Positions 5,668 through 47,165 of a stretch of 64,000 nucleotides of DNA are shown in pieces. Each line of letters begins with the position of its first letter. The stretch's first letter is position 1. The notes under the pieces were generated by a model. The model saw only the letters and a list, made by a program, of their open reading frames with translations. It had not been told where the DNA came from and searched no databases. A program made the position numbers and the translations under genes. The DNA comes from an uncultured Pseudomonadota bacterium (GTDB lineage Bacteria; Pseudomonadota; Gammaproteobacteria; Steroidobacterales; Steroidobacteraceae): contig CAIOHZ010000223.1 of NCBI GenBank assembly GCA_903858165.1, positions 25,184 through 89,183 of the forward strand, in the 5' to 3' direction.

Positions 5668-5672
5668 GGCGA

Positions 5673-26109: not shown

Positions 26110-26838
26110 GAACTTGCCTGCCGCTACCAGCAACACCACCGCTAGGCAGAGCCGTAGACCGCGGCTGTCAAAGCGCTTCAACCCGAGCCGCGTGCCAATG
26201 ACCGCACCCGCCAGCACGGCAACACCATAGACCGGCAAGGCCGCAGGCAACGACCGCACCGCGCTGATATTCCCCAGCAGTCCAAACACGGAATTGGCGA
26301 GGATGAATACCGCGGCGGTCCCTGACGCTTGCTGAATGGTCGTCCAGCGCCGGAACACCAGAATGGGCGACAGGAAAATTCCACCCCCTGTACCCGTCAG
26401 GCCGGAGAGCAGACCGATGGCCGCGCCAGTGCCCATCCCCATCGCCGTGGAAGGCGGAGTGGCCGAGTCATAGGACTCATTCCGCGGTGCCACGAGGAGG
26501 CGGAGGGCAGAGAGAAGCAAAACGACGCCGACCAAGGGCTTGTAGTACGCCCCCGGTAACTGCCAGTACCCACCGAGAAAAGCAGCAGGGATAGCACCCG
26601 CCACCACCAGCAGCGCCACCGGCCGGCTAAAGTACCCACTCTTCACATAACGGTAACTGATGAACGCCGACACCAAGATGTTCAGCGTGAGCGCAGTGGG
26701 CTTGATGACCCCGGCGGACAAGCCGAACAGGGTCATGATGGCGATATAGGCCGAAGCGCCGGCGTGCCCGACCGAGGTGTAGAGAACTGCCCCCAGCAAC
26801 AGGGCCAAGGGCAGCAGGTACTCAGTGGCTTCAGGCAT
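26098..26838 (-). CDS. TauE/SafE family sulfite/anion exporter membrane protein
   Basis: 246 aa with about 7-8 TM segments. The N-terminal VGHAGASAYIAIM motif and internal duplication are typical of DUF81/TauE. Confidence 0.75.
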   Translation of the reverse strand: MPEATEYLLPLALLLGAVLYTSVGHAGASAYIAIMTLFGLSAGVIKPTALTLNILVSAFISYRYVKSGYFSRPVALLVVAGAIPAAFLGGYWQLPGAYYKPLVGVVLLLSALRLLVAPRNESYDSATPPSTAMGMGTGAAIGLLSGLTGTGGGIFLSPILVFRRWTTIQQASGTAAVFILANSVFGLLGNISAVRSLPAALPVYGVAVLAGAVIGTRLGLKRFDSRGLRLCLAVVLLVAAGKFLLA

Positions 26839-26847: not shown

Positions 26848-27195
26848 TTACCGCGCTGCGACGACCTGGATTTCCACCTTGTAGTCGGGCGTGGCCAGCT
26901 TGGCCTCCACCGTGGCGCGCGCCGGCAGATGGCCCTGCGGCACCCAGACGTCCCATACGCTGTTCATATCGCCAAAGGTGGCGATATCTGCGAGGTAAAT
27001 GGTGGTGGACAAAATCTGCGTCTTGTCGGTGCCGGCGGCGGCAAGCAGCCGGTCGATTTCACCCAGAATTTGGCGGGTTTGCCCGGCCACATCGGCAGAC
27101 GGGTCCGTGGCGACTTGACCGGCCAGAAACACGAGGTTGCCATAGGCCACGGCCTGGCTCATGCGCTTGCCGGATTCGATGCGGGAGATGCTCAT
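26848..27195 (-). CDS. RidA/YjgF family reactive-intermediate deaminase
   Basis: Trimmed to ATG 27195, preceded by GAAGGAAG-N7. AVAYGNLVFLAGQV...IYLADI...F..MN..W..W....PAR..VEA pattern. Confidence 0.85.
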   Translation of the reverse strand: MSISRIESGKRMSQAVAYGNLVFLAGQVATDPSADVAGQTRQILGEIDRLLAAAGTDKTQILSTTIYLADIATFGDMNSVWDVWVPQGHLPARATVEAKLATPDYKVEIQVVAAR

Positions 27196-27258
27196 CTTGA
27201 AACTTCCTTCAGGAGACCAATACAGGGAGGTGCCGGGGCGGTATACTGCCACGGACAC

Positions 27259-27612
27259 GGGGGTGATCGGGTTCGACATGGACTGCGAAACTCCAAGTGC
27301 ATGCCGAGGTGCAAGATACCTCGTAAAACTACTTGCAAACTTCTAGCTGCGAACGACAACAGCTACGCACTGGCGGCTTAAGCCCCGCCAACTCCATCCT
27401 CGCCCGTGCCTGTGCGGAGGGGAATGGGGTCGCAATCATAGGATCGTAAACCGCGCGTGTTTCGGGTAGCGGCGAACTAAAAAGGACGAAGCTGGATTGG
27501 GGTGCTCCCTGCTCACCGGGTAGCCTCTTTCGAGAACAGTAGGTGGGACAAGCATGTAGATCTTGTAGCGTAGGGTTCGTGGACGGGGGTTCAATTCCCC
27601 CCACCTCCACCA
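27259..27612 (+). ncRNA. ssrA: tmRNA (ssrA), tag peptide ANDNSYALAA
   Basis: 5' GGGGGTGATCGGGTTCGAC pairs with 3' ...GGTTCAATTCCCCCCACCTCCACCA, with a G3:U pair in the acceptor stem. The tag ORF GCG AAC GAC AAC AGC TAC GCA CTG GCG GCT TAA lies at 27349-27381, after TAGCT. Confidence 0.93.
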
Positions 27613-27621
27613 ACAAGCAAA

Positions 27622-27652
27622 CCCCAACCGGCAACGGTTGGGGTTTTTTATT
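27622..27652 (+). terminator. Rho-independent terminator of ssrA
   Basis: CCCCAACCG-GCAA-CGGTTGGGG (9-bp stem) followed by TTTTTTATT. Confidence 0.85.
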
Positions 27653-27973
27653 GTCTGAATGCGGGGATTCCTGCGTGTTACTGGGGATTCGCGCGGAAGG
27701 TTACGGACTGCGCCGATGTGCCATCCGGCCGGTAGGCGGCCACCTTTCGCTCTCTCCGGGTCGTTATTCTCTCCGGAGCGCGGCCAGAAAAAAGGCCGAA
27801 GTCCCGAAGCACGGGAAATTCTCGTCTTTAGATTCAGCAGTTTACGCGCGGACGAATCGAGCGGTTGATTCGCGGCATTGGGTGGCGCAGGAACCTGTTC
27901 TGCCTTGATGCGCCGAAGCGCCACAATGCTTCGATCGGCGGTTGCTCAATGGCACTTATCCTGAGGCTGAAAC

Positions 27974-29101
27974 CTACAGGGCGCGGGAGATCAGCATCCG
28001 TTGAATGTCCGACGTGCCTTCATAGACCTGACAAACACGCACGTCACGGCAAATCTTCTCTACACCAAAGTCGGCCACGTACCCGTAGCCGCCTAGCGTT
28101 TGCAGCGCTGCCGAACAAACAACGTCAGCGGTTTCAGATGCCACAAGTTTGGCCATTGAGGCCTCGATGAGACAGGATTGGCCGTGGTCTTTAAGGCTGG
28201 CAGCATGCAGTACCAACTGCCGTGCCGCTTCGAGCCGCGCCGCCGAATCTGCTAGTCGAAATCCAACCGCCTGATGTTCCATGATCGTCTTGCCCATAGA
28301 CCGCCGACTTTTCGCAAATCCGATGGCAATCTCTAGAGCGGCCTGAGCCATGCCGACCGCCTGCGCCGCAATACCGATACGACCCGCCTCTAGATTGGAG
28401 AGCGCGACGCTATAGCCGGCTCCAAGCCGGCCAAACACCAGCGCGTCCTCTACAAAAACATCATCAAATCGCAGCGCGCAGGTGTCCGAAGCGCGTTGGC
28501 CCATTTTCCGCTCGATTTTTTCCACAATATAGCCAGGCGACGATGTTGGAATCAAAAACGCACTCATCCCGCGCTTCCCCGCACCAGGCTCCGACACCGC
28601 AATAACCATCGCCACGTCGGCCAACTGGCCCGAGGTGATGAATTGCTTGGCGCCATTGACCTGCCATCCACCAGCCACGCGGGTCGCCAGCGTTCGAATC
28701 GCCGCGGCATCCGACCCAGCATCGGGCTCCGTTAGGGCAAAGGCACCAATGAGATCCCCCGAGATTAATCCAGGTAGGAATCGTTCTTTTTGCGCTTCAG
28801 TACCGTCTCTCAAGATACCCGAGACCATGATGCTGTTCTGGATCGACAAAATGGTGGACAACGCCCCATCGGCGGCCGCCACCTCCATCAACGCCAGTGC
28901 GTACGACACATAGTCCGCGCCAGCGCCGCCCCACTTCTCCGGCGCCGTCATGCCCATCAAACCAAGGCCGGCGAGCTCTCGGAACAGGCTGCGGGGATAA
29001 GCTCCAGCTGCCTCGAACTCAGCCGCTCGAGGACGAATCTCGTGTTGCGAAAATGCTCGAACCGCGTCCCTGATCGCCACTTGTGTGTCAGAAAGAACCA
29101 T
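27974..29101 (-). CDS. acyl-CoA dehydrogenase (short/branched-chain type)
   Basis: 375 aa with FALTEPDAGSDA, QFITSG, and C-terminal YEGTSDIQRMLISRAL containing the catalytic Glu. Confidence 0.9.
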   Translation of the reverse strand: MVLSDTQVAIRDAVRAFSQHEIRPRAAEFEAAGAYPRSLFRELAGLGLMGMTAPEKWGGAGADYVSYALALMEVAAADGALSTILSIQNSIMVSGILRDGTEAQKERFLPGLISGDLIGAFALTEPDAGSDAAAIRTLATRVAGGWQVNGAKQFITSGQLADVAMVIAVSEPGAGKRGMSAFLIPTSSPGYIVEKIERKMGQRASDTCALRFDDVFVEDALVFGRLGAGYSVALSNLEAGRIGIAAQAVGMAQAALEIAIGFAKSRRSMGKTIMEHQAVGFRLADSAARLEAARQLVLHAASLKDHGQSCLIEASMAKLVASETADVVCSAALQTLGGYGYVADFGVEKICRDVRVCQVYEGTSDIQRMLISRAL

Positions 29102-29205
29102 AGAGGGTGAATATCCTAGCGTCCGGAAGTTTGCTTTGAAAATGTCGCGCGGCCAGCATGAAGTCCGCTGCCGGTGTCGGGGACCACTCGGTGGATGGCG
29201 TTAAG

Positions 29206-30102
29206 TCATCCGCCGTTTACGATGCGGGAGCGTCGTTTCAACTCGACAAACAGGCCACTGTGATCCAGACCTTCGAGGCCGTTTCCGCACATGTCCGCGT
29301 AGAGCGTTCTCACCAGCGCCGAGGTGGGAAGTCCAATCCCAAGGTCCGTCGCCATGTCCAATGCGGTACGCATATCCTTCAGTTGCACATGGGCATGAGC
29401 GCCCGGCACGAAATTGCCGTTCACCATCCGTTCACCGTGCTGCCTGAGGATCGTCGAATCTGCGAATCCACCAATCAGGGCCTCGCGCACGCTTTGTGGG
29501 TCAGCACCGCCCGCCTCCACCAGCAACAGGGCTTCCGCCACTGCTGCAATGGTGATCCCAACAATGAGTTGGTTGGCCAACTTGGCCAACTGCCCGGACC
29601 CACAGGGACCCACGTGCGTCAATCGTCCCAGCGGACGCAAGTACTCCTGCACCAGCGCTATCGTCTCCACCTCCCCTCCGGCCATAATGGTCAGCGTTCC
29701 GGCGATCGCGCCCCGTTCTCCGCCGGACACCGGGGCATCCACATACGCATGCCCCAGCGCGTATAGCCGCCGGGCATGGTCTCGAGCGACTGAGACTGGA
29801 ATTGAGCTCATCACCACGACCGGGATGCCTGCCGGCAGTCTCGAGGCCACCGTGTCACCGGATGCAGACGCACCGAAGAGCACCTCTTCGATCACCACAC
29901 CGGTACTCAACATCACAATGAGCAGATCAGCGTTGCTGACCGCCTCTCGTGGATCGGCGAACGGACGAACGCCACTACTGACGAGGGCCGCGGACTTCTC
30001 AGCACTGCGATTCCACGCGTTGACATTTAGGCCCACCGACGCGAGATTTTTCGCCATCGGTCCGCCCATGATTCCAGTACCCAACAGCGCAACCGTCCGC
30101 AT
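29206..30102 (-). CDS. NAD(P)-dependent beta-hydroxyacid dehydrogenase (3-hydroxyisobutyrate / tartronate-semialdehyde reductase family)
   Basis: ATG 30102 is preceded by GGAGGGAGG. It has the LLGTGIMGGPMAKNL Rossmann loop, DAPVSGG, and GSGQLAKLANQ with the catalytic Lys. Confidence 0.85.
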   Translation of the reverse strand: MRTVALLGTGIMGGPMAKNLASVGLNVNAWNRSAEKSAALVSSGVRPFADPREAVSNADLLIVMLSTGVVIEEVLFGASASGDTVASRLPAGIPVVVMSSIPVSVARDHARRLYALGHAYVDAPVSGGERGAIAGTLTIMAGGEVETIALVQEYLRPLGRLTHVGPCGSGQLAKLANQLIVGITIAAVAEALLLVEAGGADPQSVREALIGGFADSTILRQHGERMVNGNFVPGAHAHVQLKDMRTALDMATDLGIGLPTSALVRTLYADMCGNGLEGLDHSGLFVELKRRSRIVNGG

Positions 30103-30138
30103 AACCCCTCCCTCCAAAACTCCCTGGTCCCCCAACCG

Positions 30139-31560
30139 TCAACCCGCCACGGCGCGCGCTCGCCTGGCAGCACCCCGACGCCACACCACGTAACCGAGGA
30201 CACTCCACCCCAGGATGACGTAGAGCTCCGATGGGAACGACTCGCCCGTATTCGAAAACATTCCAAACAGCGAGGTGCACACCAAGAGCAACGAGAGCAC
30301 GATGCCGCCATAAATCGTTGCGGTACCCCCTGGCACCTCGTAGGGCGCCCGCACCAGGTCCTGGCTACGGCGTCGTACGAGGCAGGCGATGCAAACGAAG
30401 AGAAATAGCAGCGTTACCACTAGACCTGCCACCGATACGATGGGCAGCAGGAGGGGACGACCGATCAACGCTCCGACCATACAGGCCAAGAACATCAACA
30501 GCACTGGCGCCACCCGACTCTGCTGAGGATCACGACGCAGGATCCATTTCCCATCAATCAGCCCTTCACTCGCCATTCCCTCGAGAACGCGAATACCTGC
30601 AAAAAATGTCGCATTCCAGACCGTCATTAGCCCGAGGAGCGCCATGATCAGCACCACATTGGTGATTGCACGCATCCCGAACGCCGCGTCAAACGCCTGC
30701 ACGGCTGGCAGATCGTAGCTGGCTAAACGCGCTGATGGCACCAAGCCGGCGACCACTACAATAATCAAGAGATAGAACAACATGGCCGAGAGAATAACGG
30801 CGATGAGGATGCGTCCCAGACGAGCATATTCCTGCGGCTTTGCCTCCCCTATTGCCTGAGTGATCATGCCGAAACCTGCAAAGTACAGCGGCGTGGAGCC
30901 CAGCAACACAAAAAAAGCCGCAAGGGATTGCGCTCCCTCTTTTGCACCGAATAGAGGCGCGAAATTTTCGAGATGCGACGCCTTTAATCCAAACCCAATA
31001 AACACGGCCGCAATGACAATTTTACCGATGGTCAGAAAATCCTGCAGTCGGCCTGCGGATTGCGCCCCACGATAATTGGTCAGCGCAATGGCAATGCTGA
31101 ATCCCAACCCCAGCAATACCGCCCCAAGATGAATGTCAGCGCCCCCCACCGAGTACAAGGTAGGACCCAACAGCCCAGAAAACATGGCCCCAATAATCCA
31201 GGACACAGAGACGGCTTCGAAACCAACGAGCGCCAGATACAACAGGACCAATCCCCAGCCAACTGCGTGCGCAGTGGCGGTGCCGAAAATGCGTTTCGCA
31301 AACACCAGTTCGCCACCAATCACTGGATAACGACTGGCCAGTTCGGCGTAGGAAAAGCCCACCACCAGCGCCTCAATGCCGCCGATAGCAAAAGCGACCG
31401 CAGCACCGGCGGGACCGGCCAGTAACAGCCAAGTTCCCACCAGAACGATCCAGCTCCCACCGATCGTCGCTCCGAATGCAAACGCATAGAGCTGCCATGC
31501 GCCGAGCAGGCGCGCGCCAACCCCGTCGCTGTTCACATTTCCAGTCGGTTCGCTGTTCAT
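30139..31560 (-). CDS. APC-superfamily amino-acid permease
   Basis: About 12 TM segments. ATG 31560 forms an ATGA overlap with the upstream gene's stop. The longest ORF starts at 31599. Confidence 0.8.
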   Translation of the reverse strand: MNSEPTGNVNSDGVGARLLGAWQLYAFAFGATIGGSWIVLVGTWLLLAGPAGAAVAFAIGGIEALVVGFSYAELASRYPVIGGELVFAKRIFGTATAHAVGWGLVLLYLALVGFEAVSVSWIIGAMFSGLLGPTLYSVGGADIHLGAVLLGLGFSIAIALTNYRGAQSAGRLQDFLTIGKIVIAAVFIGFGLKASHLENFAPLFGAKEGAQSLAAFFVLLGSTPLYFAGFGMITQAIGEAKPQEYARLGRILIAVILSAMLFYLLIIVVVAGLVPSARLASYDLPAVQAFDAAFGMRAITNVVLIMALLGLMTVWNATFFAGIRVLEGMASEGLIDGKWILRRDPQQSRVAPVLLMFLACMVGALIGRPLLLPIVSVAGLVVTLLFLFVCIACLVRRRSQDLVRAPYEVPGGTATIYGGIVLSLLLVCTSLFGMFSNTGESFPSELYVILGWSVLGYVVWRRGAARRARAVAG

Positions 31561-32396
31561 TGGCCGTACTCCTGGTGGGTTGACAGCTCTGAGAGCCAAC
31601 GTAGTGAATGGTTGGTGTCGGTGCTCGGCCTATATTCAGCCGCCATCCAATGTCGGTACTCGACGCGTACCAATTCACTCCAAATAGCCGTGAAGTCGAT
31701 AACTCCACTGCCTGGTTCTCCACGCCCTGGGGCGTCGGAGAACTGTAGATGGTCGATACGTCCAGCCCAGCGGGCAATCTCGCTACCTACGTCGCCGCCT
31801 GCCATCGCTTCGTGATAGCAGTCGAACTGCAAGCCAAGGCCCGGAGCGTCTGCATGGTCGATGGCGTCGACAGCCTCTGCCACGTTACCGATCAACATGC
31901 CGGGCGCATCGTGTCGGTTCACCGCTTCGACCAGCGGGCGGCATCCCACATCGCGCAGGCGGTGTGTGGCCAAGCGTAGATTGGCGTAAAACACTTCCAG
32001 ACACTGCTCACGCTCGGTTCCATCCGGCACACGGCTCTGGCCGATCTGTACGCAGGCGCCAGGCAAAGCCTCTCCCAGTTGGCAAGCCTGGTCTAGTGCA
32101 ACGGCGAACTCGCTCTGCCGTCCGGGTACCCCAATCAGGCCCACTCCACCCGTGAGCAAGTCGCCCGGCCAGGCATTGAACAGCGCCACCGCCACACCGG
32201 CGTCCCGTGCCACCGCCGCGATCACGGCGGGCGAATGCCCCTGCGCTGAATGAAACTCAATGGCTCCGAACCCAGCCAGACGAGCAGCCAGTGGTCGGTC
32301 TAAAAACGGGAGATCAGTGAAGAGCCAACTGATGTTAGCGCACAGTTTCAGCACGTCGGGCCCGCTCCGCGGCGCGGCAAGACGACCGTGAGGCAA
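31557..32396 (-). CDS. hydroxypyruvate-isomerase-like TIM-barrel protein (xylose isomerase-like fold)
   Basis: LKLCANISWLFTDLPFLDR N-terminus resembles Hyi. Also ...FDCYH...HLQFSD.PGRGEPG. An alternative GTG start is at 32354. Confidence 0.7.
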   Translation of the reverse strand: MPHGRLAAPRSGPDVLKLCANISWLFTDLPFLDRPLAARLAGFGAIEFHSAQGHSPAVIAAVARDAGVAVALFNAWPGDLLTGGVGLIGVPGRQSEFAVALDQACQLGEALPGACVQIGQSRVPDGTEREQCLEVFYANLRLATHRLRDVGCRPLVEAVNRHDAPGMLIGNVAEAVDAIDHADAPGLGLQFDCYHEAMAGGDVGSEIARWAGRIDHLQFSDAPGRGEPGSGVIDFTAIWSELVRVEYRHWMAAEYRPSTDTNHSLRWLSELSTHQEYGQ

Positions 32397-32411
32397 GCCG
32401 CGTTCACGTGC

Positions 32412-33395
32412 CTATCCCCACAGTGATGGTCGCAGACTGTGGACCTGATTCCCGTCATAGCGAAGGCCCTCTGCAATATCATTCGCTAATAACAGCGGCG
32501 CATCGAGATCTGCGAGGTCACAACGCTGGCCGAGAACAAACGCTGGGGCTATCGCCAAGGAGGTGCCCAGCATGCATCCGACCATGACTCCCATCTTCAT
32601 GCTCCTGGCGATAGACACCATACGCAGCGCTTCTGTCAGACCACCGGTCTTATCGAGCTTGAGATTCACCCACTGATATTTCGCTGACAGCCCGGCGAGG
32701 GAGTCGGAGGCCTGACAGGACTCGTCAGCACAGAAAGGGATCGGGCTGACGATGTCACGCAGCACATCATCTTGTCCGACCGGCAAGGGCTGCTCGATCA
32801 AGGACACTCCGAGACGTGCCAGTTCCTTGGGATACTCCTGCACCTGACGCTCTGACCACCCCTGATTCGCATCCACAATAATCCGTGCCAGAGGGTGTGC
32901 CGCCCGAACCGCACTGACCCGCTCCAGATCCCCGGCCCCGGCCAACTTTAGCTTGAGCAAATCGAGCCCGCGTACCGCCGCCACCCGGGCGCTAGCGGCC
33001 ATGGCCTCGGGTGTTCCAACGCCGATCGTATACGCGGTCGTCAACGGGCGGACAGTCGGCAGGCCAGCCAACACCCAGGCTCGCGTGCCCGTACGCTTTG
33101 ACTCTAGATCCCACAGCGCGCAATCCAGCGCATTACGGGCGCCTCCGGCCGGCAGCAATGCGCAGAGGGCTTCGCGACTGATGCCTCGCTCGAGCGCAGG
33201 GCGCACAGCTTCGATAGCACTCACCATCGTGTCGACGGTTTCCCCGCGATAGAAGATCCCGTTGCTCTCACCGCGACCGCGGAGGTTGCCGTCATGTATT
33301 TCAACGACCATGGTTTTCGCACAGGGAAATACGGCGTTTGAAATCCGCAACGGCGTCGCGAGATCCCAATCGGCCATGCGCACCTCAATGTCCAT
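32412..33395 (-). CDS. enolase-superfamily dipeptide epimerase / N-acyl-amino-acid racemase-like protein (DgcA-like)
   Basis: 327 aa with a KLKL... Lys pair, the metal ligands IIVDANQGW, LIEQP and CADES, and a second catalytic KLDKTGG. This is the MLE-subgroup AE-epimerase architecture. Confidence 0.8.
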   Translation of the reverse strand: MDIEVRMADWDLATPLRISNAVFPCAKTMVVEIHDGNLRGRGESNGIFYRGETVDTMVSAIEAVRPALERGISREALCALLPAGGARNALDCALWDLESKRTGTRAWVLAGLPTVRPLTTAYTIGVGTPEAMAASARVAAVRGLDLLKLKLAGAGDLERVSAVRAAHPLARIIVDANQGWSERQVQEYPKELARLGVSLIEQPLPVGQDDVLRDIVSPIPFCADESCQASDSLAGLSAKYQWVNLKLDKTGGLTEALRMVSIARSMKMGVMVGCMLGTSLAIAPAFVLGQRCDLADLDAPLLLANDIAEGLRYDGNQVHSLRPSLWG

Positions 33396-34416
33396 AAGCC
33401 AACTTCAGCGCCGTGACTAAGCGCGCTACACCGGTTCTGATCGGGTCCACGCACGGCAATCCGAGTTGCTGCTCGGTTTGCGCCAACACCTCGAGGGACG
33501 CGGTCGCACTGAGCTTGGAGGTATTTAATGCCACGCCAAGGAGCCGTGCCTGAGGATTCGTGAGCTGCGCGGCGCCCAGATAACTTGCCATCGCAGCCTC
33601 CAGCGAGGGAATACGAAAGCCAGGATAGCCCCCAATCTCGTGCCTCGTGGGATCGTGACAGAGCACTAATGCGTCTGGCTGAGATCCATGCACCAGAGCC
33701 AGTGTCACCCCCGCATATCCAGGATGGAACAGAGAGCCTTGGCCCTCAATGACGTCCCAGTGATTGGGCGCGTTGGCCGGCGACAAGCACTCCGCGGCCC
33801 CAGCAGCAAAGTCGACCACCACGGCATCGAGCGGTATGCCGCTGCCCGAGATCAAGATCCCCGTCTGTCCGGTCGCACGAAAGTCCGCGTCCAAGCCCTG
33901 CGCTTGCATCTCGCGCGCCAACGCCAATGCGGTGTACTTCTTGCCTAATGCGCAGTCAGTTCCGACCGTCAGTAAGCGATGACCGGAGCGCTTTTTCCCG
34001 GTGGCGACTGGATACGTCCGTCCGTTGTGGCGCACATCGTGGAGGTGCAACCCTAGCGCCTGCGAAAGTTCGCGCAGGAAGGGAGCATCCACGAGCCGCT
34101 GATGCATGCCTGACGCCACATGCAGGCCGGCGCGCATCGCTACAGCCAAATCGTCGATCCAGACCGCGGGCAAGCCGCCGCCGACCGACGCCACGCCAAT
34201 CACTAAGGTCTTCGCCCCCGCGAGGACGGCCTCGGCTGGCGTCATATCTGGCAATTGGGCGTCCACCACGCAACCGGCACGACGAAACTGCCCCACGCAA
34301 GCGCCGGGGAGCCAATCGCGCAGTCCAAAGGCCGTCTTCGCATACAAGTCGTTCGCGACGTCCCCGAGGTACAGTAGGTAGGGCTTTTCAATTTGCAATG
34401 GGGCGGCCGCATTCAT
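33385..34416 (-). CDS. DUF1611-family protein (DgcN-like putative D-amino-acid N-acetyltransferase)
   Basis: 343 aa with TVGTDCALGKKYTAL P-loop-like segment, ...IEGQGSL.HP.Y.GVTL.L.HG..P. Overlaps its neighbours by 4 and 11 nt. Confidence 0.7.
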   Translation of the reverse strand: MNAAAPLQIEKPYLLYLGDVANDLYAKTAFGLRDWLPGACVGQFRRAGCVVDAQLPDMTPAEAVLAGAKTLVIGVASVGGGLPAVWIDDLAVAMRAGLHVASGMHQRLVDAPFLRELSQALGLHLHDVRHNGRTYPVATGKKRSGHRLLTVGTDCALGKKYTALALAREMQAQGLDADFRATGQTGILISGSGIPLDAVVVDFAAGAAECLSPANAPNHWDVIEGQGSLFHPGYAGVTLALVHGSQPDALVLCHDPTRHEIGGYPGFRIPSLEAAMASYLGAAQLTNPQARLLGVALNTSKLSATASLEVLAQTEQQLGLPCVDPIRTGVARLVTALKLAYGH

Positions 34417-36290
34417 TTCATCTCTCCGTCGTCGCCTATCGGCGCGACCACCGGCACCGTGAGACTCGACACAAAAGCTTGCTCCCGGTGAATCTTGATC
34501 GTGGGGAACCCGCGCGTCGGATACCGATGAAACGCATCCTGGTCATGTCCGGCAATCGCCAGACGCAGCGAAAATCCCTGCGGAATCCTTACCGACGTCG
34601 GCAGCAAGGTGATAGCGATCTCGGCTACCTCGCCAGGGCGCAGCGGCATTGCATCCTGCCGCTTAAAGGTGTGATACGCCCCAAAGGTCGGATAAGGGCT
34701 AGGCGCCGAGGACACCCGTCGGTGGATCAAACGTAGCTGTCCCTCCGTGATCATATGCACGGCGCCTTGCGGAGACACGGCTTCCAGATACACGATGATG
34801 GCGCCATCCGGATGCGTCGAGGAAACTTGGAGCGTGACCGAGGGGTGGCCAGTGATCTCTGTAACGACCGCCAAGGGCGCGCTGGTGTAGGTCAACAACT
34901 TCTGATCCGCCAAACGCCGGTCGCCATAAATGACGTCGGGGCCACCCACCTGGGTAGCCCATCGCGAGTTCCGACCCGTCCGCGCCGAGTAATCTACCTT
35001 GTAGATGTCCGTGCCGCCGGCGCGCGTCGGCCCAACGCTCAGCAGACGTTGCTCGGGTCCGAGGTACCAGACCTGATCGGCAGTGCCCTTGGGCGGCCAC
35101 TGCTCGGTTTGCTTCCAGCGTTTCTCACCCATCGTGTAATAGCGGAGCACGGGTCGGCTGGAGCGGCTCACCGCGCTGGCGTTGAGGAAAGGCTGGAGGT
35201 AGTCAATCACGCCCTGAATCTGCGCCGGTACGCTCGGGGCTACTGGCGTGTCCGCGGGCGCAAAAATGTCCGCATCAAACGCGGCGCCGTGCGACCACGC
35301 GCCAATCACATACTCGCCGGCGCCCGCATCGCCCACGAAGCGCGCCAGTACCCCTGCTGCCGTACCCGCGTCCATCCAGCTGCCCCAGTGCAGCATGGGC
35401 AGTGATCTTCGCGTCGGATTCTGGAGAAACTGGTAGGGCGCCACCATGTGATCGCAGCGAGCAGACAAAGCCGCCGCAAATTTCAGATCGTCACGGAATT
35501 CGGCCTTCATGAGCCAACGCGAGACATCAAGGTTCGAATGGTGCTGCGCCACGGCAGCCTTCAATTGCTGGCCGTCAGTGTCGCCTTGCACCGGTTGCAC
35601 GCCGAGCAAACGCGGCCCAGTCGACTTGCCGCTACGCCATTCTCCCTGCGGCACTTCATTCCGGTCCAGCGCCTGAACCCCCGCGCCCCAGACACCACTG
35701 ATGAAGGCATTGCGCAACCCACCTGGGAACAGGATCGAGCTGTAAGCATCAAAATCGGTGAACAGCGCTACCGCCGCCACCAACGCCGACGAGGGAGCAA
35801 TCGCCGCTGCTTCCGCGGTATTTCCAGAGTACGACTCGCCGTACGTGGCCACCCGTCCATTAGACCAGGCCTGCGCCGCAACCCAATCAACGACCGGCCC
35901 GAAGTCGCGCACCTCACAGGTCGAAAACTCGGTGTCGCGACGACCGAAAGAGGCGCCGCTACCCCGCGCGTCGATGATCACCACCACAGCACCGGCGGCA
36001 GTCATGGCATCGATGACCGGATCGGCATCGCGTTGCGCAGGGTCGAAGGACCGAGATCGCCAGTACCGCGTGAAACTCACTACGGCCGGGACCTTGGTCT
36101 GCAGAGCGCTTTCCGGTGGCCACCAAAGATCGGCCGCCAGCCGCGTCCCATCCGGCATGGGGATGTAGACCGACCCCGGACGTGGAGCCGAAATCTCGGC
36201 GGCGCTCACGGATGCTAGTGAGAACACCGCGATGCTCAGAACGACTGCCGATGCCGCGCGGACGATCACAGACGAACGCGCCGCGCTCAT
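34413..36290 (-). CDS. secreted CocE/NonD-family hydrolase (peptidase S15, X-Pro dipeptidyl-peptidase-like)
   Basis: Signal peptide ...LASVSAAE, D.RG.G.S.G segment (IIDARGSGASFG), and nucleophile motif GESYSG. Confidence 0.8.
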   Translation of the reverse strand: MSAARSSVIVRAASAVVLSIAVFSLASVSAAEISAPRPGSVYIPMPDGTRLAADLWWPPESALQTKVPAVVSFTRYWRSRSFDPAQRDADPVIDAMTAAGAVVVIIDARGSGASFGRRDTEFSTCEVRDFGPVVDWVAAQAWSNGRVATYGESYSGNTAEAAAIAPSSALVAAVALFTDFDAYSSILFPGGLRNAFISGVWGAGVQALDRNEVPQGEWRSGKSTGPRLLGVQPVQGDTDGQQLKAAVAQHHSNLDVSRWLMKAEFRDDLKFAAALSARCDHMVAPYQFLQNPTRRSLPMLHWGSWMDAGTAAGVLARFVGDAGAGEYVIGAWSHGAAFDADIFAPADTPVAPSVPAQIQGVIDYLQPFLNASAVSRSSRPVLRYYTMGEKRWKQTEQWPPKGTADQVWYLGPEQRLLSVGPTRAGGTDIYKVDYSARTGRNSRWATQVGGPDVIYGDRRLADQKLLTYTSAPLAVVTEITGHPSVTLQVSSTHPDGAIIVYLEAVSPQGAVHMITEGQLRLIHRRVSSAPSPYPTFGAYHTFKRQDAMPLRPGEVAEIAITLLPTSVRIPQGFSLRLAIAGHDQDAFHRYPTRGFPTIKIHREQAFVSSLTVPVVAPIGDDGEMK

Positions 36291-37249
36291 ATGAGCGTGT
36301 TCTCGCTTCCCTTGGTGCGAAGGATCTCGCGTGCCTCTGCAGGCGTGGCCACTTCTAGCGACAGTTCCTCCAGAATGCGGTGAATACGTCGCACCTGAGC
36401 CGCGTTAGAAGGTGCCAGTTCGCCCGGACCGAGCCAAAGACTGTCCTCTAGCCCCACCCGGACGTGACCACCCAGTATGGCCGCCATCGTCACAATCGCC
36501 ATTTGGTTGGACCCCGCCGCCAAGCAGGACCACTCATAGTTATCGCCAAACAAATCGTCCGCCGTCTGCTTGGCGTGCAGCACATGCTTCGGGTTCGCGC
36601 CCAGCCCACCTGGAAATCCGAAAATGGACTGGATCAGTACCGGACCTTTGATCCAACCCTGATCCATAATAAATTTTAGCGTGTACAAATGGCCGATATC
36701 AAAGCATTCGAATTCAAAACGCACGCCGCGTTGATCGCCTAACTCCCGGGCGATGTACTCCATATTGTGGTAGTTGTTAATCATGGTGATCCCCTTGGTC
36801 GCCACCATGAACTGCCGTTCCCAGTCATATTTGTACTGACCTTCATAGCGGTCAGCATAGGCCCATAGGCCGGGATTAAATGGCCCCATATTGAACGAGC
36901 ACAGTTCAGGGGCGAACCGCATCGGGGCCGATAAGCGCCGGGTAAACATCGCCACCGGATCTGGATTCACCAGCGCCTCGCGGTCAGGCTGGCCCGTAGT
37001 GATATTGATAATCGCGTCGCAGCCTTCCTTGATTGGACGCAGAAACTTCGCGTAGACATCCGGATCGGTCGTTGGGAACCCATCCTTCGGATCCCGTGCA
37101 TGCAGATGAATGATCGCCGCCCCTGCATTGGCAGCCTCTATGGCCTGGGCGGCAATGTCCTCTGGCGTAATCGGCAAATACGGCGACATGCAAGGTGTGT
37201 GCGCTGCGCCGGTAATAGCACAGGTGATAATAACCTTTCGCTTTGCCAC
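36287..37249 (-). CDS. beta-keto acid cleavage enzyme (BKACE/DUF849, 3-keto-5-aminohexanoate cleavage family)
   Basis: VIITCAITGA...TPEDIA..A.EA..AGAAIIHLHARDP...VRVGLED signature. GTG 37249 is preceded by AGGGAG-N5. Confidence 0.85.
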   Translation of the reverse strand: MAKRKVIITCAITGAAHTPCMSPYLPITPEDIAAQAIEAANAGAAIIHLHARDPKDGFPTTDPDVYAKFLRPIKEGCDAIINITTGQPDREALVNPDPVAMFTRRLSAPMRFAPELCSFNMGPFNPGLWAYADRYEGQYKYDWERQFMVATKGITMINNYHNMEYIARELGDQRGVRFEFECFDIGHLYTLKFIMDQGWIKGPVLIQSIFGFPGGLGANPKHVLHAKQTADDLFGDNYEWSCLAAGSNQMAIVTMAAILGGHVRVGLEDSLWLGPGELAPSNAAQVRRIHRILEELSLEVATPAEAREILRTKGSENTLI

Positions 37250-37259
37250 GTTCACTCCC

Positions 37260-38597
37260 TTAGAGCGGCCGCATCGCATTGGCGACGACCGCATCGATTG
37301 ATTGCTCTAGCACCTCAACGAGGCGGTCTATTTCTTCGGTAGTAATGACGAACGCCGGCGCGATACAAATAACATCGCGATGCTCTCCAGTACCACCAAA
37401 GTAGAACAAAACCCCTCTCTCGACTCCCGCTCGAATGATGTCCAAGGTCACGCCAGCAGTCTCTGGGAACTGTTCCAAGGTGGTTTTGTTACGCACAATC
37501 TCCACCGCCCAGAGCAGGCCGCGACCACGCACCTCGGCCACCTGCGGATGTGCCCGAAGTCGGCTCAGCTTGTTAGCGAGGTACACGCCGAGTTGTGCCG
37601 CTCGCTCTACCAACGCTTCGCGTTCCAGAATCTCGAGTACCTTATCCGCCACGGCGCAGGCCGCCGGGTGACCGCCGAAGGTATGGAACATGATCGACTG
37701 ATTGGAGGCAAGCAGCGGCCCGATTACCCTTTGCGTCGTAATGAGAGCCGCCAGCGCGGCATAGCCGCCAGTGAACCCCTTCGCCACCAACACCATGTCG
37801 GGCTTGAGGTCCCAATGCTGAAAGGCGAACTTACGCCCCGTTCGACCAAATCCCGTAATCACCTCGTCTACGATCAGCAACACCTGATGCCGACGACAGA
37901 TCTCTTGCACCCGCGGCCAGTAATCATCGGGCGGCACCAAGGCACCACCGCTGGTACCGACAATGGGCTCAGCGATAAATGCCGCAATGCTATCGGCACC
38001 CTCCCGTTCGATGAGCGCCTCGAGGCCCTCAGCACATTGCAAGGAACAGCGCCTGGTCGACGCACAATGACGACACCGCAGCGGGTAACAGGCCGGTGCG
38101 AGAGGGACGGTGGAAAGCAGCGGCTCCAACCCACGCCGCCGTTGCGTATGCCCGGACACACCGAGGGCGCCGATGGTCACACCGTGATAGGATGCCTCAC
38201 GGCCGATAACCTTCCACTTGCCGGGCCGACCGGAGGCCAAGTGATGCTGTCGCGCCAGCCGAATCGCGGCATCCACCGCCTCTGACCCGCTATTGACGAA
38301 GTGAATACGGTGCAGCTCCGGTGGCAGCCATGCCTCGGTTAACCGTTGTACAAGACGTATGCGTTGCGGCGTCTGGACCGGCGGCAGAGCATGGGTGAGG
38401 CTCAGCAACGCCTTAGCCGCCACGTCAGCCACGTCCGCGCGACCGTACCCAATATTGGAGACGCAGGCCTGGCCGCCGGCATCAAGAATCCGCTGCCCGC
38501 CTGCCGTTACCAAATAGACACCATCGGCGCTCACGAGCCCGGGCAGGGCCGTGAACGGGATGGCTGGAAACCCATCAGCAGTCGATGCATCCGACAT
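37260..38597 (-). CDS. class-III (omega) PLP-dependent aminotransferase
   Basis: 445 aa with FVNSGSEAVDAAIRLAR, LIVDEVITGFGRTG and PLP-lysine VAKGFTGGY. Its start overlaps the TBDR stop (TAATG). Confidence 0.88.
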   Translation of the reverse strand: MSDASTADGFPAIPFTALPGLVSADGVYLVTAGGQRILDAGGQACVSNIGYGRADVADVAAKALLSLTHALPPVQTPQRIRLVQRLTEAWLPPELHRIHFVNSGSEAVDAAIRLARQHHLASGRPGKWKVIGREASYHGVTIGALGVSGHTQRRRGLEPLLSTVPLAPACYPLRCRHCASTRRCSLQCAEGLEALIEREGADSIAAFIAEPIVGTSGGALVPPDDYWPRVQEICRRHQVLLIVDEVITGFGRTGRKFAFQHWDLKPDMVLVAKGFTGGYAALAALITTQRVIGPLLASNQSIMFHTFGGHPAACAVADKVLEILEREALVERAAQLGVYLANKLSRLRAHPQVAEVRGRGLLWAVEIVRNKTTLEQFPETAGVTLDIIRAGVERGVLFYFGGTGEHRDVICIAPAFVITTEEIDRLVEVLEQSIDAVVANAMRPL

Positions 38598-40870
38598 TAG
38601 AAGTTGACCCTTACCTGAAACCCGATGGTGCGCGGACGGTTGCGAGTAATGCGCTCAGTTACCGCCGCATTGTCGACCAGCACGATCGCGCGCTTGTCCG
38701 CCACGTTATCCACGAACAAGGTCGCGCTCCATTGTTCCTTTTCAATACCCAACCGCAGGTTCAACAGGCTATACGCCGGCGGCGTGAAGTAGCTCGGCAG
38801 TCTGTTCGCCCTACTCAGTGCGTTAAAGGTCGTGGTGCTGCCGCCGGTATGGCTCACATCCACACGAGCAAACGCGCTTAGATCAGCGATCGACAAGGGC
38901 ACCGTATATTGCGCAAATGCCGACAGATTGACGTCCGGAACACCCGGCAGCCGGTCTCCCTTGAACCCGGGGTTGGTGTCACCGGACGCGGTCGGTGTGT
39001 CTTCCGTCAATTGGCCATCGTTATAGCCCAAATTAAAGCCCAATTCGAGCGCGGGCACGGGACGGACAAGTAACTCGAGTTCACCCCCCAGGATCCGCGC
39101 ACGGCCAGCGTTGACGGTCGCTCGCGCTGTGCCTAAGGGCACAGACAACTGGATGTCCGACCATTTGATGTAATACAGCGCCGAAGTAACGCTCAGTCGG
39201 TTTTCAAACGCTGAAAACCGCGTGCCAAACTCGTAGTTCCACAGCGTGTCGGACTGGTAGGCAATCTCGCTATCCAGGATCCCCGGTGTGGTGTTGGTGC
39301 CGCCTGCGCGAAACCCTTGAGAGGCGGTTGCCCACAACAGCAGGTGATCGCGTGGGGCATAACTGAGGCTGAACTTCGGGATGACATTGGCCTCACTCGC
39401 TTTGCGGACACCATCGGTCAGACCAAGGCCAAGGAAGTTCGGGCCGTTGTTGACCAAGGTATCCTTTTGCTTGATATCAAAGTATCGCAGCCCGACCGTA
39501 GCTTTGAGTTTTTCGGTCAGGGCGTAATTGACTTCACCGAATACCGCATACTGAGTTTCCTCGCTCCTGCCAGTTTGATCCAGCAGTTGCCGCGGATCCG
39601 TCGCCGGCACACCGAAGAAATTGGCGACCGCTAGAAACGCGGAGGACTTGTCTTGGAGAATCTGATCAAAGCCGTTGTTTTTACGCACAAAGAAGCCACC
39701 GAGGATCCACTCCAGCTTGCCTTGGCTCGTCGACGTGAGCCGAATTTCTTGGCTGACGATGTTTTGACGATCGATGTCCTCGGTCGAACTGCCCGGCAGC
39801 CGCAACCCCGGTACGACACCCTCGCCTAGATCGTTAGTGTCGAACGCATGGCGAAGGGTTCGCTTGTAATAGGACGACGAGGACATCAACTCGGCGCCCT
39901 CAAGGGTGAACTTGACGGTCAGGTTGGCCAGGTCAAACTGGTCATTCACTTTCTCTGGAATGATCGTGTTCGTCATGAGATCGCCGACGCCAGCCACTTC
40001 GATATTGCGGTCGTTGGCCTTGGCCTGCTGCGTGAGCAGGTTGAGCTGAACCTCCGTGTGGTCGTTCGGCAACCAACGCACGGCGGCTCGACCCGCCGTG
40101 ACTTCCTCTCCATTAATGTCTTTCTGGCCAGCCAACGGACCGGTGTTGACAATGGGCACAGTGCCCGCAGCTAGCCCAAAGAGCGCATTCAGATCCAGGC
40201 TGACGCCACCAGGACGCGCAATGCGGTCAATATAGCCGGCGCTCGAATGCCTCAGCGCCGTCAGGCGCAGCGCGAGCACATTTTCGACCAGCGGGAGATT
40301 CAGCATCCCGTTCAACTGGTAACCGTCGCCACCATTCTCCGTCACCGAATAACTCGTATCGACCTTCGCGTGGAAGCCCGTCACGTCCGGTGGGGTGGAA
40401 ATCATCCTGAGCGTGCCGCCGATGGACCCTTCTCCGTACAGGGTTCCCTGCGGGCCACGCAGTACCTCCACACGTTGCAGGTCAAACAACTGGGGGTCCG
40501 GCTGGAAGTTGCCAAAACTCACTGGCATTTCATCGAGATAGACACCGACGCTGGCAGCGCCCTGTGTCGCCAGACCTGATGAGATGCCGCGGATGGAATA
40601 CTGTCGCATGCCGATACCGCGATCGACGACCGCAAAATTTGGAACCTGACGGTAGTAGTCATTGATCTGGCTGGCGCCTATCTGCTCCAAAGACTCGCCC
40701 GTGATGGCCTGCATCGATAACGGCACATCTGCCAGCGACACCGACCGCTTAGTCGCCGTCACTACGATTTCCTCCAGCTCCGTTGGAGGTCGCTGGGCGT
40801 TGGCGACCGACGCCACAGCCATGGTTAATACCGTAAACACTTGCAGTTTCAGCGAATGCGAATATTGCAC
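38597..40870 (-). CDS. TonB-dependent outer-membrane receptor
   Basis: Signal peptide ...SVANAQ, plug start EEIVVTATKR, RVEVLRGPQGTLYGEGSIGG, and a C-terminal ...FQVRVNF aromatic residue. GTG start with GGGGAG-N9. Confidence 0.92.
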   Translation of the reverse strand: MQYSHSLKLQVFTVLTMAVASVANAQRPPTELEEIVVTATKRSVSLADVPLSMQAITGESLEQIGASQINDYYRQVPNFAVVDRGIGMRQYSIRGISSGLATQGAASVGVYLDEMPVSFGNFQPDPQLFDLQRVEVLRGPQGTLYGEGSIGGTLRMISTPPDVTGFHAKVDTSYSVTENGGDGYQLNGMLNLPLVENVLALRLTALRHSSAGYIDRIARPGGVSLDLNALFGLAAGTVPIVNTGPLAGQKDINGEEVTAGRAAVRWLPNDHTEVQLNLLTQQAKANDRNIEVAGVGDLMTNTIIPEKVNDQFDLANLTVKFTLEGAELMSSSSYYKRTLRHAFDTNDLGEGVVPGLRLPGSSTEDIDRQNIVSQEIRLTSTSQGKLEWILGGFFVRKNNGFDQILQDKSSAFLAVANFFGVPATDPRQLLDQTGRSEETQYAVFGEVNYALTEKLKATVGLRYFDIKQKDTLVNNGPNFLGLGLTDGVRKASEANVIPKFSLSYAPRDHLLLWATASQGFRAGGTNTTPGILDSEIAYQSDTLWNYEFGTRFSAFENRLSVTSALYYIKWSDIQLSVPLGTARATVNAGRARILGGELELLVRPVPALELGFNLGYNDGQLTEDTPTASGDTNPGFKGDRLPGVPDVNLSAFAQYTVPLSIADLSAFARVDVSHTGGSTTTFNALSRANRLPSYFTPPAYSLLNLRLGIEKEQWSATLFVDNVADKRAIVLVDNAAVTERITRNRPRTIGFQVRVNF

Positions 40871-40946
40871 AGACTACTCCCCTAATTTACTAAACCGGTG
40901 AGGCGGTGGTCGCCACTCTGTTGCGTCTTCTCGCGCGACTGTTACA

Positions 40947-40966
40947 AAATGACCATACGGTCATTT
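40947..40966. promoter_or_regulatory. Perfect palindrome AAATGACC-ATAC-GGTCATTT (candidate operator just downstream of the putative TBDR promoter)
   Basis: 8-bp arms with a 4-nt spacer. It lies 5 nt downstream of a possible TTTACA-N18-TAGCAT promoter on the minus strand (40972-41001). Confidence 0.5.
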
Positions 40967-41055
40967 CTGCCATGCTATTCCTACTTTGGTTGCTTTGTAA
41001 ATAAGCTTTTTGACCATTACTTCGGCCTGCCAATCTGGCATCGCCGGTCTAACGG

Positions 41056-41071
41056 ATGACTGAAGAGTCAT
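41056..41071. promoter_or_regulatory. Perfect palindrome ATGACT-GAAG-AGTCAT (second candidate operator, upstream of the S12 genes)
   Basis: It has the same ATGAC(Y)-N4-(R)GTCAT architecture as 40947-40966. TTTTGACC half-site-like copies occur at 41007-41014 and 41071-41078. Confidence 0.45.
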
Positions 41072-41079
41072 TTTGACCT

Positions 41080-41487
41080 ATGATCCGGGCATTACAGTCT
41101 CTGCTCGGACGGGCAGTCTCCATGCGCAATCGCTCGTCGAAAGTGTTCGGTCCGGTCATTGCCCTGTTACTGGCCGGCGCTCTCACCTGCCCCCCATCGC
41201 CCGCCAGGGCAGACCCGCTCGACGCGCAGGAAGTCGAAGCTTCGGCAGACGCCACGTTCGACGGTGCCTTTGCTGCCCATCGGTTTTCGGGCCTAGTGAT
41301 CTCGGTCGTACAGAACGATCGGGTGCTCTTCACCAAAGGGTATGGGTTTGCCGATTACGCGGCGCGGACGTCGGGAACGCTGTCGGTCTATTCCAACTAT
41401 GAGATCGGGCTGTTAGGACAACTTGCTAGGTCTGCATTTACCGCACAGCGGTTAGAGGCGTATCACGTGGAGGAGACAGCACCATGA
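41080..41487 (+). pseudogene. N-terminal fragment of a beta-lactamase-fold (S12) serine hydrolase, lacking SxxK
   Basis: Signal-like VFGPVIALLLAGAL plus FSGLVISVVQNDRVLFTKGYGFAD parallels PGLAIVIVENDQILLAKGYG of the next gene. Similarity ends before the SxxK motif. Its stop overlaps the next start (ATGA). Confidence 0.45.
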
Positions 41488-43016: not shown

Positions 43017-43038
43017 GTGGATTCTCGATATACTCAGC

Positions 43039-43065: not shown

Positions 43066-43088
43066 CAGAACTCATCAGCCTGATTACC

Positions 43089-47132: not shown

Positions 47133-47165
47133 GAGGTGTTCTCAGGGATTTCAGGGCTTGACTCT

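Follow-up and report, generated by a model that had tools for sequence, protein, structure and literature searches.

A TonB-receptor operon with a D-glutamate cassette in Steroidobacteraceae: a candidate scavenging locus for peptide-like compounds

Introduction

Which compound is taken up and degraded by an operon that combines an outer-membrane receptor, a secreted hydrolase, an amino-acid permease and cytoplasmic enzymes, and what controls its expression? The question is raised by ten genes in the genome of an uncultured Pseudomonadota bacterium of the Steroidobacteraceae. The DNA analyzed, hereafter the window, comprises 64,000 nt of contig CAIOHZ010000223.1 (GenBank assembly GCA_903858165.1, positions 25,184 to 89,183). 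The operon occupies positions 27974-40870 of the window on the minus strand. With a divergent hydrolase gene and a TetR-family regulator gene, it forms a block that extends to position 43820. Gene content, gene order and conserved DNA motifs suggest a TetR-repressed, horizontally mobile scavenging operon for a peptide-like compound with D-amino acids. A probability of about 0.55 is assigned to this reading.

Organization of the operon

Ten open reading frames (ORFs) are packed head-to-tail on the minus strand. The first gene encodes a TonB-dependent outer-membrane receptor (TBDR, 38597-40870). It is followed by genes for a class-III aminotransferase of the omega-amine:pyruvate type (AT3, 37260-38597), an enzyme of beta-keto acid cleavage (BKACE, 36287-37249) and a secreted serine hydrolase of family S15 (CocE/NonD, 34413-36290). 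The center is formed by a putative D-glutamate N-acetyltransferase with a DUF1611 domain (dgcN, 33385-34416) and a putative N-acetyl-D-glutamate racemase of the enolase superfamily (dgcA, 32412-33395). A Hyi-like TIM-barrel isomerase (31557-32354), an inner-membrane amino-acid permease of the APC family (30139-31560), a beta-hydroxyacid dehydrogenase (HIBADH, 29206-30102) and, as last gene, an acyl-CoA dehydrogenase (ACAD, 27974-29101) complete the operon. Divergent from it, on the plus strand, lie the genes of a secreted S12 serine hydrolase (41484-43016) and of the TetR-family regulator, identified by its TetR_N domain (43089-43820).

The ORFs and junctions were re-read in the sequence. All coordinates agreed with a preliminary description of this DNA, as did the tight spacing on one strand. 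TBDR and AT3 overlap in TAATG at 38597. Ten nucleotides separate the AT3 stop (37260) from the GTG start of BKACE (37249), with AGGGAG ahead of the start. ATGA overlaps join BKACE to S15 (36287-36290), S15 to dgcN (34413-34416) and Hyi-like to APC (31557-31560). dgcN and dgcA overlap by 11 nt (33385-33395), while gaps of 36 nt and 104 nt separate APC from HIBADH and HIBADH from ACAD, respectively. One junction has to be corrected. A 15-nt gap had been given between the epimerase gene, dgcA, and the Hyi-like gene, corresponding to a TTG start at 32396. Most probably, the isomerase starts at GTG 32354, which leaves 57 nt, because the hydroxypyruvate-isomerase hidden Markov model (HMM) matches the long ORF only from residue 17 and because the gene, as called independently in L172, a 99 %-identical contig, encodes 265 aa.

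Profile HMMs confirmed the earlier family assignments; all ten products match named Pfam families with scores far over threshold. The proposed order of compartments, from the outer membrane through periplasm and inner membrane to the cytoplasm, is supported by signal peptides of S15, S12 and TBDR and by the hydrophobicity of APC. Independent contigs repeat the gene order at protein identities of 56-99 %. The arrangement is therefore not due to chance.

The D-glutamate cassette

By homology, the DUF1611 protein and the enolase-superfamily protein are DgcN and DgcA, the enzymes of a route published in 2023 that leads from D-glutamate (D-Glu) via N-acetyl-D-Glu to N-acetyl-L-Glu. DgcN comprises the domains DUF1611_N (PF17396, 72 bits) and DUF1611 (PF07755, 249 bits) in a P-loop architecture. 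It aligns with the full length of NCBIfam model NF041892 (1-326/326) and scores 472.6 bits, 7 below the cutoff of 480. Identity to PDB entry 7XRJ is 52 % over 332 aa (360 bits). As cited in a 2026 preprint, 7XRJ is the experimentally determined D-Glu acetyltransferase of Yu et al. (2023). Citing papers summarize the route as acetylation of D-Glu by DgcN and racemization of N-acetyl-D-Glu by DgcA, yielding L-Glu. Relatives are publicly annotated as 'N-acetyltransferase DgcN [Steroidobacteraceae bacterium]' and 'D-glutamate N-acetyltransferase'.

The racemase gene had been linked before to the L-Ala-D/L-Glu epimerases of murein-peptide metabolism. On HMM scores, this identity is rejected. The protein clears NF042940 with 414.8 bits (cutoff 400) and remains below the L-Ala-D/L-Glu epimerase (YcjG) model PRK15129 (284, cutoff 343); on NF041118 it scores 95 against a cutoff of 500. 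The catalytic KxK, D, E, D and K motifs align with those of 4GFI (LLKLKL, VDANQGW, IEQP, CADES and KLDKTGG). In line with general knowledge of the MLE subgroup, the Lys pair is presumably catalytic, and the Asp/Glu/Asp residues presumably bind the metal. The 11-nt overlap of dgcN and dgcA recurs in L172 and in a canonical-looking locus, L175. The earlier proposal that D-Glu is processed thus gains support from the DgcN/DgcA assignment. The D-Glu step of the locus, being already described, is not new.

In Pseudoalteromonas sp. CF6-2, the strain of the published pathway (Yu et al. 2023, ISME J 17:537), the genes of the DUF1611 N-acetyltransferase and the enolase-superfamily racemase likewise adjoin and overlap. 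In the window, by contrast, the pair is embedded in a presumably TetR-controlled TonB-receptor/peptidase operon and appears dispensable in close relatives. The regulator of dgcN-dgcA in strain CF6-2 is said to be DgcR. In L175 (4363-7281), the canonical-looking pair adjoins an MlrC-like gene (DUF1485/MlrC_C) and a LysR regulator gene.

Secreted hydrolases, receptor and transport

The S12 hydrolase carries a signal peptide, a beta-lactamase fold with the motifs S82-x-x-K and Y174-x-N, and a DUF3471 domain. Among its nearest structures in the PDB are a D-amino-acid amidase, the D-Asn-specific ClbP and Pab87, a D-Ala-D-Ala-type protease. Of the NCBIfam models, it matches that of the DD-carboxypeptidase/endopeptidase AmpH best, with 94.9 bits, far under the cutoff of 266. 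The S15 hydrolase has a signal peptide, Peptidase_S15 and PepX_C domains (TIGR00976, 291 bits) and the nucleophile motif GESYSG (GxSYxG). A signal peptide, a TonB-box-like EEIVVTA, plug and beta-barrel domains and a C-terminal Phe characterize the TBDR. The permease (AA_permease_2) has 11 hydrophobic segments; it is swapped for a PTR2/MFS transporter in the related loci L084, L114 and L173. Related loci also add an M55 DppA D-aminopeptidase, a dipeptide-epimerase-like MR_MLE protein and PTR2 or Opp peptide transporters. A D-peptide as target is suggested by DgcN/DgcA, by the D-stereospecific relatives of S12 and by these additional genes in sister loci.

The BKACE module

A beta-keto acid arises when a beta-amino acid is transaminated or a beta-hydroxy acid is oxidized. 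BKACE converts a beta-keto acid and acetyl-CoA into an acyl-CoA and acetoacetate. The BKACE of the operon (PF05853, 316.6 bits) has the residues H48, H50, E181, R264 and E268, which are invariant across its orthogroup and align to the structure of BKACE15 (8RIO). E171 and R254 of BKACE15 correspond to E181 and R264, and the HxH zinc ligands are kept at positions 48 and 50. Key catalytic residues are thus present on alignment both in BKACE and, with 4GFI, in DgcA. The orthogroup is marked by a 9-aa insertion after NITTGQP, by SFNMGP in place of SLNMGS/T and by changed pocket loops. A genome scan with a family-wide BKACE motif gave, among the matches listed, mostly BKACEs of 50-56 % identity in unrelated contexts. 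The BKACE of the window is therefore placed in a separate orthogroup. The 50-56 %-identical enzymes are taken to be nearer to the characterized BKACE15/3E02 type. BKACE15, the closest characterized enzyme, accepts neutral C5-C6 beta-keto acids and malonate semialdehyde (PMC11961710). On NF053538, a 3,5-dioxohexanoate:acetyl-CoA acetone transferase model, the window protein scores 431.4 bits against a cutoff of 430. This activity was rejected as the physiological role on account of the borderline score, the different context and the different pocket.

Family, catalytic residues and logic are shared with the BKACE routes of lysine fermentation (Kce), dehydrocarnitine cleavage and oxidative 2-deoxyribonate catabolism. 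There, a dehydrogenase or an aminotransferase makes the beta-keto acid, which BKACE and acetyl-CoA turn into acyl-CoA and acetoacetate. In contrast to these routes, the window orthogroup has the 9-residue insertion and altered pocket loops and reaches only about 50-56 % identity to the nearest characterized group (BKACE15/3E02 type); no other one is associated with a TBDR and secreted S12/S15 hydrolases.

AT3 (Aminotran_3, 302 bits) has amine, putrescine, gamma-aminobutyrate (GABA) and beta-alanine:pyruvate transaminases as nearest structures among the matches listed. The Hyi-like isomerase (AP_endonuc_2) is related to hydroxypyruvate isomerase and 2-oxo-tetronate isomerase and falls below the cutoff on both models (TIGR03234, 210 bits; OtnI, 186 bits); its PDB relatives are 3NGF and 1K77 (YgbM). 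HIBADH (NAD_binding_2 and NAD_binding_11) is closest to tartronate-semialdehyde reductase and reaches 234 bits on TIGR01505, below the cutoff of 341 (PDB 4DLL, 255 bits). A Hyi-like isomerase and a beta-hydroxyacid dehydrogenase, translationally coupled, also make up the enzyme pairs Hyi-GlxR (glyoxylate/tartronate semialdehyde) and OtnI-LtnD (tetronate), whose families score best for the two window proteins. The window proteins, however, remain well under the equivalog cutoffs and have no glyoxylate carboligase, kinase or decarboxylase partner. ACAD shows three ACAD Pfam domains and matches no NCBIfam equivalog.

A single route that employs AT, Hyi-like, HIBADH and BKACE was sought for D-Ser, D-Thr, diaminopimelate (DAP), diaminobutyrate (DABA), isoserine, beta-alanine and statine-type units; none was convincing with all four enzymes. 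The literature search found no paper that links BKACE with Hyi, TBDR or S12. BKACE, AT3, Hyi-like and HIBADH form a recurring orphan module for which no pathway was found in the literature. According to the preliminary description, no described pathway covers the entire locus. The literature search gave none either; dgcNA by itself belongs to the known D-Glu route.

Related loci

Related loci were collected from metagenomes with the orthogroup segment INITTGQP...SFN[ML]GP (80 loci); homologue look-ups contributed further annotated contigs. Loci with a BKACE identity of at least 75 % are termed type A. In these, the genes of TetR, S12 and, optionally, a second S12 hydrolase (S12b) face the series TBDR, AT3, BKACE, S15, (dgcN, dgcA), Hyi-like, (APC), HIBADH, (PTR2), (ACAD), optional genes being in parentheses. 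The conserved core consists of TetR and one or more S12 hydrolases facing TBDR-AT3-BKACE-S15-Hyi-like-permease-HIBADH.

dgcNA is wholly absent from a Steroidobacteraceae type-A locus with an 87 %-identical BKACE. A 98 %-identical strain (L093) carries a 1269-bp deletion around positions 6075-6080, corresponding to 32424-33692 of the window, by which dgcA and the 3' third of dgcN are gone. In L114, dgcN is kept but dgcA is missing; L082 lacks both. Loss of the D-Glu cassette has occurred repeatedly, and dgcNA is an insert that the more widely conserved backbone can do without. D-Glu therefore cannot define the locus. S12b has decayed in the window. A remnant at 41149-41421 on the plus strand, detected by blastn against L092, retains only about 225 nt and 50 nt of the 2-kb gene, which is intact in L172 (667 aa), L092, L094, L084 and L082. 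This deletion explains the unusual length of the divergent intergenic region (613 nt). ACAD occurs, among the type-A loci, only in the window, L093 and L172. In L092, a 94 %-identical copy, a toxin-antitoxin insertion has cut the gene short: about 91 codons remain, and a CcdB/CcdA-like pair, with families assigned by eye, comes next (17549-18515). ACAD is a lineage-specific add-on and not a conserved member. In L173, a 1-Mb contig, the type-A AT and BKACE genes are split into fragments of 141, 161 and 173 aa (4852-6240), either as pseudogenes or by long-read frameshift errors.

Three further architectures were distinguished. Type B (L091, L143, L144, L148, L149, L157, L160-L163) comprises TetR, an SMP-30 lactonase, an SDR protein, BKACE, one or two class-III aminotransferases and a CPBP/Rce1-like intramembrane protease, besides Hyi-like, S12, a SnoaL-like protein, an alpha/beta hydrolase and MFS_2, with a TBDR nearby. 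In type C, the genes of Hyi-like, TBDR and TetR diverge from those of BKACE and an enoyl-CoA hydratase (ECH). Type D contains TBDR, an M55 DppA D-aminopeptidase, an S15-S12 fusion, ECH, BKACE, Hyi-like and HIBADH, with DgcN nearby. In types A and D, the HIBADH gene keeps its place beside that of the Hyi-like isomerase.

Neighbor frequencies were determined for BKACE genes of the orthogroup in 37 loci that remained after dereplication, each with 9 kb of flank or more. The commonest neighbors are class-III aminotransferases and Hyi-like isomerases (68 % each), S12 (65 %), TBDR (59 %) and TetR (54 %), followed by HIBADH (46 %), S15 (32 %) and CPBP (30 %). MR_MLE (27 %), DgcN (22 %) and ACAD (19 %) are rarer.

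Regulation

The divergent region between TBDR and S12 holds two candidate operators with the palindrome ATGAC-N6-GTCAT, O1 (ATGACCATACGGTCAT, 40949-40964) and O2 (ATGACTGAAGAGTCAT, 41056-41071). They are the only perfect sites in the 64 kb. Six window sites match with at most one mismatch, against 1.3 expected, and none of 100 shuffles reached six. O1 lies just downstream of the -35/-10-like pair (41001-40972) that would serve the TBDR operon, and O2 overlaps the -35-like hexamer of the divergent promoter. In an alignment of the TBDR-upstream regions of six type-A loci, mean column identity is 55 %, yet the palindrome of O1 is invariant; a second copy lies toward the S12 side.

Orthogroup loci contain 38 sites in 0.94 Mb, almost all of them intergenic and upstream of TBDR, BKACE or S12 genes. 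Control loci (n=79) have one site in 1.28 Mb, where about one is expected by chance. The operator is also present in type B, and a TetR gene is co-located with it across all architectures. The TetR protein is the presumed repressor acting at O1 and O2. An operator common to all architectures argues for one TetR-type regulon, probably with related inducers. Rfam gave only a tmRNA and a tRNA, and no riboswitch or other known RNA upstream of TBDR. Terminator-like sites number 25 in the window (15.9 expected); only the hairpin behind ssrA stands out. Neither promoter-like nor terminator-like sites were accepted as marks of the operon boundaries.

Genomic setting and mobility

The block 27974-43820 is located between ssrA and a hut operon. 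Its GC content is 59.4 %, compared with 63-64 % in the flanks, and the GC content at third codon positions is 0.62-0.72, compared with 0.75-0.84. Its flanks differ in L092, L172 and L082. On these grounds, the block has moved horizontally. A classical ssrA-integrated island was considered and rejected: the block abuts ssrA, but neither an integrase nor a direct repeat of the ssrA 3' end was found.

The tmRNA gene ssrA (27259-27612; tag peptide ANDNSYALAA) is followed by a strong terminator with a 12-bp GC-rich hairpin (27619-27646). A 162-aa ORF that overlaps ssrA (27436-27924) is probably spurious. Before ssrA lie the genes of a TauE/SafE-family exporter (26098-26838) and a RidA/L-PSP family protein (26848-27279). 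On the other side, the block is bordered by a full histidine-utilization cluster (43870-51938) with hutH, hutU, a GntR-type hutC, hutD, a hutF-like amidohydrolase, the N-formylglutamate amidohydrolase hutG and a hutI-like amidohydrolase. A phenylacetate cluster follows about 8 kb off the block (51952-59604); it encodes a PaaZ-like Aldedh-MaoC fusion, an enoyl-CoA hydratase, a PaaE-like reductase, PaaC, PaaA and PaaX. The paa cluster is probably unrelated to the block, since the block flanks differ in other genomes. For the same reason, carnosine (beta-Ala-His), suggested by the hut neighbor, and a conversion of Adda to phenylacetate, suggested by paa, were dismissed as targets, and the neighborhoods were regarded as coincidental.

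Farther away, a plus-strand ORF (16202-18310) matches PF10712, 'NAD-specific glutamate dehydrogenase', with 674 bits. This family is known to arise artefactually from the strand that lies opposite dnaK, so that the actual gene is most likely a minus-strand ORF of 640 aa (16370-18292), located beside dnaJ (15037-16203) and hrcA (19004-20110). A tRNA-Leu(GAG) gene is found at 2026-2110.

Proposed pathway and alternatives

In the proposed mechanism, the TBDR would carry the substrate over the outer membrane. The secreted S12 hydrolase, with its D-stereospecific peptidase/esterase fold, and S15 would cut it in the periplasm, and the APC permease would take in the pieces. Two separable cytoplasmic modules would then complete the breakdown. 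In the first, by homology to characterized enzymes, DgcN would acetylate D-Glu with acetyl-CoA and DgcA would racemize N-acetyl-D-Glu to N-acetyl-L-Glu. The latter could be deacetylated, or enter arginine synthesis, elsewhere in the cell. In the second, an amino or hydroxy acid would become a beta-keto acid through AT3 and/or HIBADH; the Hyi-like isomerase may catalyze a keto-shift beforehand. BKACE and acetyl-CoA would split the beta-keto acid into acetoacetate and a short acyl-CoA, to be oxidized by ACAD in the lineage of the window; ECH would act in types C and D. At the two ATGAC-N6-GTCAT operators, TetR would respond to an inducer that is probably the substrate itself or one of the intermediates.

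A broader proposal is put forward tentatively, at less than even odds. The gene set under the TetR operator (orthogroup BKACE, AT3, Hyi-like, HIBADH, S12/S15 and TBDR) may represent an undescribed, widespread pathway for a non-proteinogenic beta-amino or beta-hydroxy unit from D-peptides. BKACE would provide an ATP-independent CoA activation, with dgcNA as one plug-in cassette among several for the D-residues that come along.

Several results weigh against a D-peptide scavenging operon. AT3 shares only 26-35 % identity with the aminotransferases found in other architectures, which may therefore not be orthologues. The Hyi-like isomerase and HIBADH stay under every NCBIfam equivalog cutoff, and no coherent route with BKACE was found; the link from aminotransferase to BKACE is drawn from chemistry only. 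Close relatives have lost dgcNA or dgcA, which marks D-Glu processing as dispensable, and a gene for an N-acetyl-L-Glu deacetylase is absent from the operon. The sugar-like genes of type B (GPH-type MFS_2, SMP-30 lactonase and SDR) suit a peptide less well. Sigma-70 promoter-like hits in the window are at chance level (7 found, 6.2 expected).

The preliminary description had named peptidoglycan stem peptides or poly-gamma-glutamate as the target; AT3, BKACE, Hyi-like and HIBADH would then degrade meso-DAP or another wall amino acid. D-Glu is the hallmark amino acid of the wall, and DgcN/DgcA are presented in the citing papers as a route discovered for wall-derived D-Glu. AmpH is the best NCBIfam match of S12, and relatives encode M55 DppA and an MR_MLE protein resembling L-Ala-D/L-Glu epimerase. 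Murein tripeptide recycling in E. coli (MppA/Opp, MpaA, YcjG, PepD, LdcA and AmpD) also handles D-Glu peptides, and DgcA is homologous to YcjG (1JPD, 241 bits). However, the enzymes that define murein recycling, namely a MurNAc-L-Ala amidase, an LD-carboxypeptidase, an MpaA-type gamma-D-Glu-DAP amidase and Mpl, are absent from the block and from the related loci inspected. The epimerase fails the YcjG model, uptake would proceed via a TBDR, and the AmpH score is far too low. Close relatives keep all else while dgcNA is absent or decayed. No known or obvious reactions lead from DAP, D-Ala or Glu to a beta-keto acid; we know of no chemistry that joins meso-DAP or poly-gamma-glutamate to a BKACE. 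This target was thus not borne out and is considered unlikely.

Somewhat less likely still are nonribosomal, cyanobacterial or lipopeptides that contain D-residues together with beta-amino or beta-hydroxy acids, such as microcystin and nodularin (Adda and D-Glu) or peptides of the iturin and surfactin type, with aminotransferase and dehydrogenase both feeding BKACE. A transaminated beta-amino acid belongs to the BKACE substrate class, the acyl-CoA product suits ACAD or ECH, and many loci come from lake and sediment metagenomes. The microcystin cluster mlr (MlrA CPBP, MlrB S12, MlrC M81 and MlrD PTR2) would likewise be directed at a peptide with D-Glu and a beta-amino acid. The likeness is one of protein families: the CPBP/Rce1-like protease and S12 of type B and PTR2 of type A are presumably of the MlrA, MlrB and MlrD families, respectively. 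The canonical dgcNA locus adjoins the MlrC-like gene. Against this, the window shares only S12 with mlr and has no CPBP/MlrA or M81/MlrC homologue; CPBP is confined to type B and PTR2 to L084, L114 and L173. To our knowledge, mlr clusters have no BKACE, aminotransferase or TBDR. The nearest structures of AT3 are amine or omega-amino-acid:pyruvate transaminases, and the beta-transaminases 2YKU and 4AO9 are not among the matches listed. The beta-hydroxyacid dehydrogenase family usually takes C3-C4 acids.

An amide or ester other than a peptide, for example an amino-sugar acid, a lactone or a beta-lactam-type compound, is improbable. S12 and S15 would act as amidases, esterases or beta-lactamases, and dgcNA would be a hitch-hiker. 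S12 shares the class-C beta-lactamase/esterase fold, S15 includes cocaine esterase, and relatives encode a penicillin amidase, a C45 protein (acyl-CoA:6-aminopenicillanic acid acyltransferase family), SMP-30 lactonase, SDR and GPH-type MFS_2. The series lactonase, SDR, BKACE parallels the published oxidative deoxyribonate route (bioRxiv 10.1101/205583). However, the transporters of window-type loci are of amino-acid and peptide kinds (APC and PTR2), and D-amino-acid enzymes recur (DgcN, DgcA, M55 and MR_MLE), while a sugar kinase, aldolase or glycosidase is lacking. That independent cassettes without a common substrate accreted under one promoter is hardly credible: dgcNA, S12b, ACAD and APC/PTR2 do vary among close relatives, but stop and start codons overlap at four junctions, the backbone order is stable over 56-99 % identity, and one operator is conserved across architectures.

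Biological significance

Nothing in the locus contradicts current concepts. It is a TonB-dependent utilization locus that joins a known D-amino-acid module to an uncharacterized BKACE route. Like the TonB-dependent carbohydrate (CUT) and polysaccharide (PUL) utilization loci of Proteobacteria, it combines a TBDR and secreted hydrolases with inner-membrane transport, cytoplasmic catabolic enzymes and a locally encoded, presumed repressor. The hydrolases of the window are, in contrast, of peptidase and amidase types instead of glycoside hydrolases.

In soil and water, peptides with D-amino acids from cell walls and nonribosomal products make up a large store of organic nitrogen whose degradation is slow. 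Their capture and dismantling by Gram-negative bacteria is poorly known. The locus connects the recently found D-Glu route to outer-membrane uptake and periplasmic hydrolysis. Among the 91 related loci, which were drawn from collections of genomes and metagenomes, the orphan module is met in at least four architectures, and it has its own presumed repressor and operator. The substrate is a tractable problem, given a defined operator, few soluble enzymes and a cultured carrier of a related architecture, type B, in Pseudomaricurvus alkylphenolicus (GCA_011683955.1). Once the substrate is named, a further BKACE subgroup would have its role in physiology.

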